The notes: generated by a model not told the origin, from the sequence alone. 11,456 bases of DNA from a virus (IMGVR_UViG_2671180770_000008:1-11456), one strand, 5' to 3'; positions 2,793 to 8,871 are shown, counted from the stretch's first letter. Made by a program: numbers and translations.

Positions 2793-4730
2793 TTACGGGT
2801 TATTCACTTCCACTGTTATACTTTCAATCAGCACCGGATATGTCGCACCGCTAGTGATATCGGTCACGCGCAATTTGTCTGCCGTAAACGTGCCGACCGG
2901 TGACTGTGACAGCATGAACGGCGTCCCGTCCTTACCATCAATGACCGGCGTCACCTCAATACTGTTGTTACCGGCAAAACGGAAGCCCAGCGTATGCCAT
3001 TCGTTATCAAATGCGCCGAATGACCCCAGCTTCGTGTTCTGACCAGCATTTCCCTTGTGGTACATCACATTAAGGTCTGTGGCATCGCTCTGTACGTAAA
3101 ACGACGCCAGCAGGTTATGACCGGCATTACCTTCCAGTGTGACGCCCTGAGGCAGTGAAGAAACCGGCCAGTACAGCGCCAGTGCGTACTGATTAGCTGT
3201 CAGTGTGCCATCAACTTTAAAACGACAACTGATAAGCCCGCCCTTCTCCAGCAGGTCTGCGCCATTACCGGCATCATGCTGCATAAACCACGAGGAACTT
3301 CCTGTCTGTTTGGTCCACCTCAGCGCCTTACCTCCTGCAGCACCTGCATCATCAACTACCAATGCACGCCCTCCTTCAGCTCCCCATCCCTGCGGATTCA
3401 GTAAACCACCTGACTCTGTTGCACGGTAATAAAGCAGCGTTGTCACTGATTTCCCGTCCGTTGACGGTGTTGATGGTGTGTCCGGTGACGGCTTCTCATC
3501 CGGCGGCATCACAACCTGTTCCCCACCCACCAGTTCAGCCGTCCGTCCTGCATGGAGAAGAATCGCTGAGGCAAGACGGTCAGAAATAATCCCCCTGCGT
3601 GCCCATGAGCTGAAATGGCTCGCACGGTCTGCTGACGTCCAGTTTGCCGACGTCCGGGAGGCCGCACCGTAATATCCTGATGCCGGAATATCCGGGTCTT
3701 CTTCCGGTTTGTTCGTCGGGACATTTGCTCCGTTCTCATCGGTCATGAACGGCACAAAGTGAATATTCTTTTCCGTTTTGTTTTTGTAACTGCCGTACAC
3801 CGTCTGGTAAGTGGATTCGCTCTTCTGCTTCCAGAAATAAGTTGTGTCTCCACATATCCAGGGAACACCGTCAGCAGAACCACCAGCGCACTGTCCCACC
3901 ATATCTGCAAGGTCCGTACGATATTGTTCCACTACTTCTGTAAAACGGGCTGTGTGATTTGCTGGCGTTCCGTCAAAGTCAAATTCCCCCTGCATCCACA
4001 CCACGGCAAGCAGCACATTTTTCGGGTTCTTTGCCAGCGCGGCTTTTGTACGACCGATGAGATCCTTATACAGCGGCCTGCCCACACCCCAGCGGGTATA
4101 ACTCTCTGAGGCACCGGTCACGTCACTGTATGTTCCATCTGCCCCGGTGGTGAAAGCTGAACCACCACGGCAGCACGGAACCAGAAGAATACCCGCATTC
4201 GCCGGTATAAACGGCAGCAGCTTTTTGGCAATATGCAGCCCGTGCCCCACGGTTCCGTACTGACCTTTCGACAGGTCAGCTTTCGGATGGTTAAGACGGC
4301 TCATGTCCTGTACATCATGCAGACAGTGGTCTGCCGGAATAATGTCGTTATATTTACAGGGAGCGCCATCCGGCGTCACTGTGCTGCGACGAGCCAGTTG
4401 CTTTATACGCGGGTCAGGACGGTCATATGTCTGCGGCAGAGGAAGCCCCTCACCGTAAGCCATGCCGTTCGACTGCCCGGCCAGTGGAATAACGTAGTAA
4501 TAATCTGGCTCCGTGGTGACCACTCCCGGATAGCCACCATCCCCCGTGCCGGGCACAACCACTGGCGTGGTCACATCCCCCTCCGCGGCAATCGCCTGCA
4601 TCAGGGTATAAGGGGTTATGGCCACAGGACTACCAAACGGCTGCCAGCCCTCTTTCAGTTTGTGTGTCAGCTTTTCCGCAAGATCTGACGGCGACGCCGC
4701 CCTGACAACATCATAATGTTTAATCGACAT
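2793..4730 (-). CDS. nanS: NanS-p-type prophage sialate O-acetylesterase, 645 aa
   Basis: Strong RBS GGGAGA; N-terminal MSIKHYDVVRAASPSDLAEKL... segment, esterase-type motif YYVIPLAGQSNGMAYG, size and position (between Q and S) as in the NanS-p proteins of E. coli O157 prophages. Confidence 0.88.
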   Translation of the reverse strand: MSIKHYDVVRAASPSDLAEKLTHKLKEGWQPFGSPVAITPYTLMQAIAAEGDVTTPVVVPGTGDGGYPGVVTTEPDYYYVIPLAGQSNGMAYGEGLPLPQTYDRPDPRIKQLARRSTVTPDGAPCKYNDIIPADHCLHDVQDMSRLNHPKADLSKGQYGTVGHGLHIAKKLLPFIPANAGILLVPCCRGGSAFTTGADGTYSDVTGASESYTRWGVGRPLYKDLIGRTKAALAKNPKNVLLAVVWMQGEFDFDGTPANHTARFTEVVEQYRTDLADMVGQCAGGSADGVPWICGDTTYFWKQKSESTYQTVYGSYKNKTEKNIHFVPFMTDENGANVPTNKPEEDPDIPASGYYGAASRTSANWTSADRASHFSSWARRGIISDRLASAILLHAGRTAELVGGEQVVMPPDEKPSPDTPSTPSTDGKSVTTLLYYRATESGGLLNPQGWGAEGGRALVVDDAGAAGGKALRWTKQTGSSSWFMQHDAGNGADLLEKGGLISCRFKVDGTLTANQYALALYWPVSSLPQGVTLEGNAGHNLLASFYVQSDATDLNVMYHKGNAGQNTKLGSFGAFDNEWHTLGFRFAGNNSIEVTPVIDGKDGTPFMLSQSPVGTFTADKLRVTDITSGATYPVLIESITVEVNNP

Positions 4731-4816
4731 CGAATTTCTCCCGTGTACAGGAACAGAGTTAAAAAGCCGGAACCGGAATCAAATCACAGGATGACCATCT
4801 GCCAGTGGCTGGTCGT

Positions 4817-4843
4817 AAAAAAAAGGCCGCGCCATGCGCAGCC
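4817..4843 (-). terminator. Intrinsic terminator on the minus strand, upstream of nanS-p
   Basis: Minus-strand RNA GGCUGCGCAUGGCGCGGCC (8-bp stem, 3-nt loop) followed by UUUUUUUU (RC of 4817..4824). Confidence 0.7.
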
Positions 4844-5044
4844 GGAAATAAAGGGATAACGATGATAGTTTGAGAAAAACAGAAATAACACTTTTGTGGC
4901 AAAGCATGGTGCCGGGTGCCTCCCGGTGAATTCAGTACCAGCACCTGAATCCGCGATTATCCCATATACCTGGTTGCTGATTGCCCCTCCGCACAGGGGG
5001 ATTCACCATGCAGTAGTATTTTTAATAAACAGTAAACAAAAAAA

Positions 5045-5212
5045 TCAAGCATTATGCAGGCTGTTTCTTTTTATCACCGGCCACAGCAATACCACAATGC
5101 CGCAGACCAGCCCCCCATCCGCCAGCACCGACATGATTCTGCTGGTGAAATCCACCATCACCACCAGAAACAGCAGGAGTGCAGCCACAGCCAGGCGCAG
5201 TTTTACCGTCAC
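5045..5212 (-). CDS. 55-aa small membrane protein (VTVKLRLAVAALLLFLVVMVDFTSRIMSVLADGGLVCGIVVLLWPVIKRNSLHNA), GTG start overlapping the TerB-like stop
   Basis: GTG 5212..5210 overlaps TGA 5211..5209 (GTGA); GGAG 8 nt upstream; two hydrophobic stretches. Below the ORF-track cutoff. Confidence 0.4.
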   Translation of the reverse strand: MTVKLRLAVAALLLFLVVMVDFTSRIMSVLADGGLVCGIVVLLWPVIKRNSLHNA

Positions 5213-5680
5213 AGGTGATTCTCCAGACGAAGCCCCAGAACACCGGCAATCTCTTCCAGCACCTTGCGCTCTTCCGGCTCAATTTCGCCGTCTGCCTCCG
5301 CAATGGCCACCGCCACATCCAGCACATCTTCCGCTTCACGCGTATCGTGTTTCACATCCTCGATCTCACGTAACGCCGCACGACGACCAATTTTAAAGTT
5401 CGTATCCAGCTGACCGATAATGGTTGCGCTAATCGCATTAATTTCTGACGTAAACGCGGACAGCGCTGGCTGATTACGCAGTACCTGTTCGATCTTCGCT
5501 TTCTAGGAAGCCTCACATTCACCATCTGCACAGGCCACCAGGTATGCGGCGTTAATCACCGTCTGTGCCAGATCGCGTTTCTCAAACTTTCCTTTTTCCG
5601 GTTAACGTGACACACCAATAACTCTTGTCGAAAAAGCCAGCAAGCTGAAAGACCGGTATTCACAACCACCAGCGCGTTTA
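5209..5680 (-). pseudogene. TerB-family (tellurite-resistance TerB-like) gene disrupted by an in-frame amber codon and a 5' frameshift
   Basis: Frame 5601..5209 encodes ...EKGKFEKRDLAQTVINAAYLVACADGECEAS*KAKIEQVLRN...DVLDVAVAIAEADGEIEPEERKVLEEIAGVLGLRLENHL with TAG at 5505..5503; the N-terminal part (..GFFDKS..) sits in another frame; no usable start codon. Confidence 0.55.
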
Positions 5681-5704
5681 CTGTACTGGCGTGATTTCAG
5701 TCAT

Positions 5705-5727
5705 AAAAAAACCCGCCTGGCGACGGG
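5705..5727 (-). terminator. tR'-like terminator of the short pR' leader transcript
   Basis: Minus-strand RNA CCCGUCGCCAGGCGGG (6-bp stem, 4-nt loop) followed by UUUUUUU. Confidence 0.75.
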
Positions 5728-5763
5728 TGTAAAAAATCTTCTAACGTCAGGCATAAAACGCCC

Positions 5764-5803
5764 ATCGTTAGGGCAAATTTACCACAGATTCGGGAAAAAT
5801 CAA
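5764..5803 (-). promoter_or_regulatory. pR'-like late promoter with qut / pause element
   Basis: On the minus strand: -35 TTGATT (5803..5798), 16-bp spacer, -10 TAAATT (5781..5776), then TGCCCT AACGAT GGG, closely resembling my recollection of the lambda pR' -10 / pause region (GGGTAAATTTGACTCAACGATGGG); starts directly after the Q stop codon. Confidence 0.7.
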
Positions 5804-5808
5804 CAAAG

Positions 5809-6630
5809 CTATCTGGTCACCTTTTTCAGTTGTTGTTCTGCCCATGCTTCTTCAATATCAAACTGCACCACCAGCGTATCGTAAAAACGTTTAACTGTTT
5901 TTTTCCATGTATCAAGAGATATGGCATCGGTTACATTACATATGGCATTAAATGCCTCCGTTGAAGGTAATCTTTCATAGCCACGACCACCACAACGCTG
6001 GCAGTCTCTGATAACAGGCATACCACGTTTTACCGACTCTTCACGATGAATGGCAACACCGCGCCCACGACAATCTTTACAGGCGGTGGAAACCTCCCCC
6101 TTCCCTCCACACTCCGGACAGGCAACTTTTACCACCTCCCTGACTTTTTTCCATTCCTCCCAGTAAGACGGATACACGCCTTTTGTGCACTTTGCCCACA
6201 CTGGCGGCTTACCATCCGGATACTGGATCTTGTTTGTAAAAACCTCGCTTTCAATAAATTTTTTTCCGTGACAACAGGGGCACTGTTTTTTGCTCGCCGC
6301 GCTACGGGCATAATCTTCAAACGCATACGAAGCCATAATACGCATCACTGCCGGTTTTATTTCTGCCGGGAGTTTTTTTAACGCCGCCACGCGATCACAC
6401 CGACTGAGTGCATATTCTGTCAGCAATTCTGTTGCCCGCTCTCTGTCATTCATACTAATGCCCATTTTCCCAAGGAACGCAGAAAACCCCATCTCAGCCC
6501 AATTCTGTGTCATGCCCTGCGCGGCCATCACATCAGTGATACTCAGCGTATCTTTCGACGTTGAGGCCGATGCATCAGTCAGGCCGGGGGATTTTGGGGA
6601 GTAGTATTTCGGTAAATCTTCCAGTTTCAT
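5809..6630 (-). CDS. Late-gene antiterminator Q (Q-like, zinc-binding), 273 aa
   Basis: Immediately upstream of the pR'-like promoter; several CxxC pairs (CPCCHGKK, CPECGGKG, CKDCRGRG, CQRCGGRG); position equivalent to quuQ / quuD. Confidence 0.8.
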   Translation of the reverse strand: MKLEDLPKYYSPKSPGLTDASASTSKDTLSITDVMAAQGMTQNWAEMGFSAFLGKMGISMNDRERATELLTEYALSRCDRVAALKKLPAEIKPAVMRIMASYAFEDYARSAASKKQCPCCHGKKFIESEVFTNKIQYPDGKPPVWAKCTKGVYPSYWEEWKKVREVVKVACPECGGKGEVSTACKDCRGRGVAIHREESVKRGMPVIRDCQRCGGRGYERLPSTEAFNAICNVTDAISLDTWKKTVKRFYDTLVVQFDIEEAWAEQQLKKVTR

Positions 6631-8510: not shown

Positions 8511-8666
8511 TTACTCCTCAGGTTCGTAAGCTGTGAAGACAGCGACCTCCGTCTGGCCGGTTCGGATTCGTACCTCGCAGAGGTCTTTCCTCGTTACCAG
8601 TGCCGTCACTATGACGGTTAAACAGATGACGATCAGGGCGATTAACATCGCCTTTTGCTGCTTCAT
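8511..8666 (-). CDS. hokD: Hok-family type I toxin (HokD/RelF-like), 51 aa
   Basis: MKQQKAMLIALIVICLTVIVTALVTRKDLCEVRIRTGQTEVAVFTAYEPEE, which I recall as identical or near-identical to E. coli HokD; RBS AAGGAG 9 nt upstream. Confidence 0.9.
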   Translation of the reverse strand: MKQQKAMLIALIVICLTVIVTALVTRKDLCEVRIRTGQTEVAVFTAYEPEE

Positions 8667-8871
8667 AGCCTGCTTCTCCTTGCCTTTCGGCACGTAAGAG
8701 GCTAACCTACATGTGTCTAGCATGAAATTGACCTCAGATTAATGTTAGGCGTCTTGCAGGACGCGTAATGTTAACTGGGGCTTTTCTCTGTCTGCCTTTT
8801 GGTGTTCATGCCTGAGGCAGATAGCCTCAAGCACCCGCAGCAATTCTACTTAACTCTCGCTTTACAGCAAA
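8667..8871 (-). promoter_or_regulatory. hok mRNA promoter and leader: -10 TAGAAT (8848..8843), tac-like hairpin, mok-like upstream reading frame (ATG 8723) in frame with hok
   Basis: Leader UUGAGGCUAUCUGCCUCA... parallels the plasmid R1 hok 5' end; the 5' element (RC of 8825..8840) is complementary to a 3' element at 8445..8461 (fbi-type long-range pairing). Confidence 0.6.
8715..8790 (+). ncRNA. Putative Sok-like antisense RNA (approximate extent)
   Basis: Plus-strand promoter candidate TTGCCT (8680..8685), 17 bp, TAACCT (8703..8708); transcript would be antisense to the mok-like start/RBS; no clean terminator found, 3' end uncertain. Confidence 0.25.

Follow-up and report, generated by a model that had tools for sequence, protein, structure and literature searches.

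Positions 5045 to 5680 of the viral stretch IMGVR_UViG_2671180770_000008, whose full 11,456 nt we refer to as the window, very probably hold a decaying copy of the tciA-tciB moron, located in a lambdoid prophage, within the late operon, at the slot in which Stx phages carry stxAB. The copy consists of a tciA pseudogene of the TerB family, which lacks its 5' end and is interrupted by an amber codon, followed by a complete tciB reading frame encoding a 55-aa membrane protein. All features described below lie on the minus strand unless stated otherwise.

The late operon starts with the Q antiterminator gene (5809..6630; Pfam Antiterm, E = 5.4e-50), which is followed at 5705..5802 by a pR'-like promoter, a short leader and a tR' hairpin, defined by a terminator scan, by folding and, for the promoter, by eye. 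More specifically, the promoter (TTGATT, 16 nt, TAAATT) is a by-eye reading and is absent from the promoter scan output, the leader from pR' to tR' (5703..5785) folds into two hairpins with -30.1 kcal/mol in all, and the terminator scan places the tR'-like hairpin with its U-run at 5728..5711 (-12.0 kcal/mol). The region 5705..5802 is 92% identical to its counterpart in phage Evi, and the stretch 5810..5588, running from the 3' end of Q through tR' up to the junction with tciA, is 99.6% identical to a Stx2a-converting phage record. In Stx phages, a regulatory sRNA (StxS) has been described that corresponds to short transcripts from pR'.

Further along the operon lie a Stx2-phage-type post-tR' leader (5591..5704), a recombination joint (5588..5600), the tciA pseudogene (5209..5590), tciB (5045..5212), an STnc100/PasD-type sRNA gene followed by an intrinsic terminator (4817..5037) and a NanS-p-type esterase gene of 645 aa (2793..4730), which forms the downstream boundary of the slot and carries the Pfam domains DUF1737, SASA and DUF6645 (RefSeq: 'SASA family carbohydrate esterase'). 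The promoter scan returned no sigma-70-like promoter between tR' and tciB on the minus strand, and ARAGORN found no tRNA gene within the window. In Stx2 phages, STnc100 is located 75 nt 3' of stx2AB (PMC12370729). Because STnc100 directly follows tciB here and follows stx2 in Stx2 phages, tciAB fills exactly the stx slot, which lies after Q, pR', tR' and a tRNA cluster and before STnc100 and the nanS-p-type esterase gene. The first-pass annotation had placed the locus directly downstream of pR'/tR', at the position of stx, and the positions of Q, of the tR' hairpin and of STnc100, 8 nt after tciB, bear this out. The stxAB moron of Stx-converting phages thus shares with the present locus the same late-operon slot, with Q, pR', tR' and tRNAs on one side and STnc100 and nanS-p on the other, but its genes are unrelated to tciAB and no toxin is encoded here.

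By homology, the pair is the tciA-tciB phage cargo module, already named and annotated, which the first-pass annotation had not recognised. GenBank and RefSeq list tciA and tciB in JLK-2012, TciB in phage 434 and tciA, tciB and tciC in P1; the annotations of P1 and P7 cite homologues in O157:H7 cryptic prophages; and the moron category of PHROGs holds both families, as 632 ('tellurite resistance') and 1470 ('TciB-like inhibition of cell division or resistance to colicin'). At the DNA level, the module in the window is 91-92% identical to tciA-tciB of phages Evi and JLK-2012. The intact products are a TciA of 143 aa with a single TerB domain and a TciB of about 55 aa, a two-helix membrane protein. 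TciA-like proteins are found in 131 phage records, including jumbo Erwinia, Vibrio and Pseudomonas phages, and TciB is detectable in 20. TciA has been treated as a terB homologue, with no reported tellurite, colicin or phage phenotype (PMC9603915, PMC6799933, PMC8421299).

The first-pass annotation had suggested asking whether the two genes co-occur, and they do: tciB comes directly after tciA, with stop and start codons overlapping or abutting, in P1, P7, the N4-like phage Pollock, a Klebsiella phage, Evi, JLK-2012 and O157:H7 OK1. This arrangement in intact copies implies translational coupling of tciA and tciB. In the window, tciA is likewise immediately 5' of tciB and overlaps it, but the two genes are not both intact, tciA being truncated and carrying the amber codon.

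Several known systems come close to this copy. P1 and P7 (Punavirus; NC_005856, NC_050152) carry the same two families (TciA 42-52% and TciB 50% identical) in the same order, with overlapping or abutting stop and start codons and with phage tRNA flanks as in the intact lambdoid copies. In P1, however, the genes belong to the C1-controlled ban operon of a phage-plasmid and are accompanied by a third small gene, tciC, whereas the present locus is in a Q-dependent late operon, has no tciC, has a dead tciA and has its tRNA cluster deleted. The intact lambdoid copies (Evi, LR597642; JLK-2012, NC_049942; O157:H7 OK1, WP_000466957.1/WP_000216636.1) share 91-96% DNA identity with the window and occupy the same slot, bounded on the upstream side by Q and tRNAs and on the downstream side by STnc100 and the SASA esterase gene. 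They differ in having a 143-aa tciA reading frame with a start codon, Glu46 and an upstream tRNA cluster; the window is without nt 1-50 of the gene and without the tRNAs, and has the amber codon, Y37C, an Ala-to-Thr change and, in TciB, V34G. TerB of the terZABCDE operon (Klebsiella, 2JXU, PF05099) belongs by sequence to the same single-domain fold family, but no other ter gene is near tciA, whose partner is DUF3927 and not TerC. More specifically, none of terZ, terA, terC, terD and terE was found in the homologous RefSeq stretch, which covers most of the window, or among the scanned neighbours; the genes around tciA are Q, DUF3927, the SASA esterase gene and lysis genes.

We also observed that tciAB is linked to phage tRNA clusters across unrelated phage types (L001 2049..2282; L003 2724..2965; L008 2149..2401; L015 849..2509; L018 158..1888). 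The pair lies between tRNA-Asn/Thr and tRNA-Ile in P1 and P7, after tRNA-Asn/Thr/Gly in JLK-2012, and after Met/Lys/Arg or Ile/Arg tRNAs in Evi and the O157:H7 prophages, and in D6-like phage-plasmids tciA and tciB are located in the tRNA region (PMC6799933). The tRNAs and tciAB seem to travel together.

The assignment of the upstream frame to the TerB family, made in the first-pass annotation from the sequence alone, holds in profile searches. The 97-codon remnant after the amber codon scores by itself 32.3 bits against PF05099 (cut-off 24.4), an intact tciA homologue scores 60.2 bits (E = 2.9e-16), and residues 14-137 of intact Evi TciA align with residues 20-144 of the TerB structure PDB 2JXU (E = 4.4e-8). 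Matches to NCBIfam were sub-threshold only, for example 28.6 bits to DjlA against a cut-off of 162. Among the PADLOC defence models, TciA gave just 14.5 bits (E = 0.0035, PDC-S48) and TciB no match, and a link to defence systems was dropped for want of a meaningful hit.

Homology to tciA spans 5590..5209 and ends with a TGA at 5211..5209. The window keeps the gene only from codon 18 on, and the frame is broken at codon 46 by a TAG (5505..5503). This amber codon is genuine, and it stands in place of the GAG for Glu46, a residue that is invariant in six TciA homologues (29-97% identical). Beyond it, as the first-pass annotation had described, 97 codons with no usable start run up to the TGA; the protein they would specify is identical to the corresponding part of intact Evi TciA. 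On the upstream side, the tciA frame is closed by an in-frame TAA at 5603..5601. The remnant carries two further changes, Y37C and an Ala-to-Thr replacement at 5562. With no start codon and with Glu46 replaced by TAG, the window does not encode a complete translatable TerB domain with its conserved acidic residues. Judged by its sequence, this tciA copy is a non-functional pseudogene member of the TerB family.

The sole in-frame start 3' of the amber codon opens a 48-aa reading frame (5355..5209), with a GAGG just 2 nt ahead of its GTG. Its counterpart among the phage protein families is PHROG 3920, whose 48-position profile aligns with residues 96-143 of TciA (E = 7e-36). This reading frame is probably not a real gene and is better seen as a fragment picked by gene-callers; PHROG 3920 probably collects such 48-aa fragment calls from phage annotations.

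The first-pass annotation had also described a frameshift near the 5' end of the gene. This part of the description does not stand, as the window contains no indel there. Homology to intact tciA (Evi, JLK-2012 and an O157:H7 prophage) begins abruptly at 5590, which is nt 51 of the gene, and alignments found no similarity between 5591..5704 and the region upstream of intact tciA. These 114 nt (5704..5591) are instead part of a 144-nt stretch, 5732..5588, with a match of about 90% to the sequence after Q in Stx2a phages, where the leader runs to the ribosome-binding site (RBS) of a 65-aa reading frame upstream of a DNA methylase gene, tRNAs and stx2AB. A three-way alignment, in which the window is set against Stx2 phages and against intact tciA, resolves the joint at 5588..5600 and reveals a microhomology, CGGAAA..AAA(G), between CGGAAAAGGGAAAAAG in the Stx2 leader and CGGAAATTAAAAAG in tciA. 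Because homology to tciA is lost upstream of 5590 and the adjoining sequence matches the Stx2 leader, we interpret the lesion as a deletion by illegitimate recombination. As judged from these alignments, the joint lacks the tRNA cluster as well as the RBS, start codon and initial 50 nt of tciA.

A MAFFT alignment had hinted at a remnant tRNA in 5591..5704; ARAGORN and Rfam returned no tRNA, and the candidate was rejected, the segment being Stx2-phage leader. Separately, the post-tR' leader contains a Chi sequence, GCTGGTGG, at 5673..5666 on the minus strand, about 75 nt upstream of the joint, which is conserved in Stx2-phage leaders.

The spread of these lesions was assessed in a census of 5426 complete E. 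coli genomes, using short queries whose matches must include the diagnostic base; these genomes hold roughly 3000 tciA-tciB places in all. The amber allele (exact 43-mer) is present at 962 places in 577 of the 5426 genomes and the joint (identical 44-mer) at 638 places in 502 genomes. The 5' end of intact tciA is found in 789 genomes, often the same ones, the intact copy then being on another prophage; genomes of O157:H7 and O103:H2, for instance, hold the broken copy plus intact tciAB copies. At the homologous locus, RefSeq annotates a 'tellurite resistance TerB family protein, pseudo, internal stop' followed by a 'DUF3927 family protein', and we saw the pseudo label in O55:H7 RM12579, O103:H2 12009, O157:H7 86-24 and O145:H28 RM13516. 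Two bases separate the window from the O55:H7 copy over 5830..4700, one at 5562 (the Ala-to-Thr change) and one at 4988 (within the STnc100 match). Since the same broken copy resides in hundreds of pathogenic E. coli and is annotated as such where checked, the locus is an ordinary one.

The alleles found in other genomes also bear on the order of the lesions. Two loci, L012 and L013, have full-length amber alleles behind tRNA-Ile/Arg clusters and a different Q gene, both with an additional +1 frameshift in an A-run. Residue 37 is Tyr in L012, and Cys in L013 and in all joint-bearing copies. Given that the amber allele occupies 962 places and the joint 638, that full-length amber copies exist and that L012 retains Tyr37, the most economical order suggested by these sequences is E46* first, then Y37C, then the 5' deletion.

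Constraint on tciA was evaluated over codons 18-143 in three intact and eight amber-linked alleles. Variable codons are 27 synonymous against 1 non-synonymous in the intact alleles and 7 against 9 in the amber-linked alleles, in which the non-synonymous changes reach into the 3' part of the gene (S to Y, H to R, H to Y, L to Q). This difference reflects relaxed constraint and therefore marks tciA as a genuine pseudogene.

Two other remnants came to our attention. In E. coli FORC 064 (L014 1334..2527), a further deletion has fused a truncated DUF968 gene directly to the same joint in tciA; it took rusA, Q and pR', and tciB there carries W44*, so that this locus represents a more advanced decay of the same allele. 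Some non-EHEC E. coli chromosomes contain a fragment of about 150 nt that is 84% identical to the tciA upstream region and the first 29 or so codons (L007 2566..2679). RefSeq labels fragments of this type 'DUF3927 domain-containing protein, pseudo, missing C-terminus', a label that looks inconsistent with a tciA-like sequence; at the one locus examined, IS100 borders the fragment on one side and an IS200/IS605 transposase pseudogene on the other.

The second gene, tciB (5045..5212), is complete as a reading frame. Its GTG overlaps the TGA of tciA (GTGA, 5212..5209) and is preceded at 8 nt by a GGAG, and hydropathy indicates two hydrophobic segments, in agreement with the overlapping two-helix membrane protein and its RBS seen at first pass. 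The product matches PF13064 (DUF3927; 60.5 bits, cut-off 25, E = 1.5e-16) and PHROG 1470, 'TciB-like' (E = 1.5e-29); sequence comparison with the PDB returned no relatives of TciB. It keeps all 14 columns that are invariant in an 8-member alignment, including D21, F22, S24, L30, D32, G33, L35, V36, P45 and K48, and it is the same product as that of the O55:H7 and O157:H7 copies labelled WP_000216629.1 by RefSeq. Position 34, which adjoins the invariant Asp32-Gly33 in the conserved core, is Gly here and Val or Ala in seven homologues. The V34G change creates a run of six G at 5116, and O103:H2 has one G fewer at this run, resulting in a frameshifted 45-aa product. Another amber-linked copy carries a W44* allele of 43 aa.

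Contig counts for tciB alleles were obtained from a collection of 15 billion proteins. The exact allele of the window is on at least 999 contigs and full-length alleles are each on at least roughly 970-999, while shortened forms are on at least 992 (43 aa), at least 889 (37 aa, N-truncated) and at least 217 (45 aa). Across the eight amber-linked loci, tciB shows 2 synonymous and 3 non-synonymous changes (W44* included), with V34G and the frameshift counted apart from this tally and the codon holding the frameshift set aside. Between intact loci there are 13 synonymous and 9 non-synonymous changes, that is, tciB evolves fast there too, which makes the contrast between amber-linked and intact loci weak. 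For this reason, and because the sample of substitutions is small, relaxed constraint on tciB is suggested and no more than that. The amber codon leaves the nearest translated codon 291 nt upstream of tciB, so that coupling is lost and any translation of tciB must use the GGAG alone. In phage 434, tciB occurs with no tciA, behind an unrelated 247-aa membrane protein, and phage 2B8 has a TciB match as well.

The STnc100 gene that follows matches RF02076 at 5037..4871; the hit covers the model from end to end (1-206) and reaches 101.6 bits, the gathering score being 47, and the primer sites for STnc100 given in PMC12370729 are present in the window. It starts 8 nt past the tciB stop codon, compared to about 5 nt where the locus is intact, in Evi and O157:H7 OK1. 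The strong terminator that the first-pass annotation had noted after the two reading frames is confirmed as a GC-rich hairpin at 4843..4825 (-15.4 kcal/mol) with a U-run to 4817; it probably ends the STnc100 sRNA gene rather than the moron. Within 10 kb of the PasA/PasC sRNAs, the conserved genes include TerB (preprint 10.64898/2026.05.13.724894). In E2348/69, PasD2 and PasA flank an esterase gene, and a common ancestry of PasD and STnc100 has been proposed (10.64898/2026.05.13.724894).

Several other observations concern this part of the window. By eye, a promoter-like TTGATT...TAAAAA is seen at the stop codon of tciB, which it overlaps, and the arrangement of STnc100 after tciB is the same in the intact loci L003 and L008. 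In the intact copy of O157:H7 OK1, a gene for the anti-GcvB sRNA AgvB (Rfam, 96.5 bits; L008 3364..3425, minus strand) lies on the opposite strand directly after STnc100; Rfam gave no AgvB match in the window. A 47-aa reading frame on the plus strand (4716..4859) overlaps the terminator and the start of the esterase gene, and its homologue is an incomplete pseudogene in RefSeq and a 'hypothetical protein' in JLK-2012; this reading frame is probably spurious. At a distance from the moron, the window also contains a hok/sok type I toxin-antitoxin locus (8511..8836; Rfam sok, 113.5 bits at 8661..8836), with a Hok-like reading frame within 8511..8723 and hokD annotated at the homologous RefSeq locus.

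Two explanations would restore a working tciA. One holds that the window is in error, through sequencing or assembly, at the amber codon and the missing 5' end, and that the gene is really intact; nothing speaks for this beyond the general possibility. We regard it as scarcely conceivable, as the exact amber 43-mer and joint 44-mer recur in 577 and 502 independently finished genomes, respectively, and RefSeq records the internal stop in O55:H7, O157:H7, O103:H2 and O145:H28; the census thereby refutes it. The other holds that the amber codon is decoded, through suppression or programmed read-through, or that translation re-initiates downstream, giving a functional TerB fragment. In its favour are the identity of the 97 post-amber codons to Evi TciA at the protein level and the 48-aa GTG frame, whose homologues are called as genes in phages. 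Against it, no start codon precedes the amber codon and the frame is closed by the TAA at 5603..5601; the window holds no tRNA gene; the GAGG is just 2 nt from the GTG of a 48-aa frame that is without more than half of the TerB domain; and across the amber-linked copies the 3' part of tciA has accumulated non-synonymous changes. A functional TerB fragment from this copy is accordingly very improbable.

The alternative that bears on tciB carries more weight. It states that tciB is a functional orphan encoding an inner-membrane protein, expressed from the late transcript with its own Shine-Dalgarno sequence and acting alone or with TciA supplied in trans by a sibling prophage. The first-pass annotation had likewise considered a small membrane protein that outlived its partner, and several points favour it: the frame and its GGAG are intact, all invariant DUF3927 positions are kept, phage 434 has tciB with no tciA, so that TciB may work alone, O157:H7 and O103:H2 carry intact tciAB next to the broken copy, and the allele occurs on at least 999 contigs, which would fit a function that persists. 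Against it, V34G sits beside the invariant Asp32-Gly33, frameshifted, nonsense and N-truncated alleles are about as abundant as full-length ones among the matches listed, coupling to tciA is lost, and successful EHEC clones may have carried the allele to its high frequency by hitch-hiking. We therefore consider an orphan function of tciB unlikely, and joint decay of tciA and tciB the better reading. The decaying two-gene moron, which the first-pass annotation had put forward as its other option, is the one supported, with tciA a pseudogene under relaxed constraint.

For the decaying tciA-tciB copy, we propose the following course of events. GAG would have changed to TAG at the invariant Glu46 of tciA, followed by the change of Tyr37 to Cys; illegitimate recombination at the microhomology would then have dropped the tRNA cluster together with the RBS, start codon and first 50 nt of tciA, joining the remnant to a Stx2-type post-tR' leader; and the Ala-to-Thr change in tciA would have arisen last, in this window only. 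No TciA protein could then be made from this copy. The remnant and tciB would be transcribed only within the Q-antiterminated pR' late transcript, and tciB would perhaps be translated at a reduced, uncoupled level from its own GGAG, the V34G copy belonging to a population in which tciB too is apparently being lost. By analogy with the ter operon, TciB in an intact pair may anchor the TerB-domain protein TciA at the inner membrane and alter envelope or stress physiology, such as tolerance to colicin, phage or tellurite.

As a discovery, the locus carries little weight, since RefSeq already has the TerB-family pseudogene and DUF3927 and tciAB is named in the P1 annotation. Should TciB nevertheless be kept as a stand-alone late-operon membrane protein (e.g. 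in envelope stress, lysis timing or exclusion), alone or with TciA in trans, which we hold to be doubtful at best, polylysogenic EHEC would tolerate or favour losing a redundant tciA and keep tciB. The value of the analysis is corrective: the 5' lesion is a joint with a Stx2-phage leader, the terminator is probably that of STnc100, the amber allele has a long history and a wide distribution among EHEC prophages, and tciAB sits in the exact slot of stxAB.
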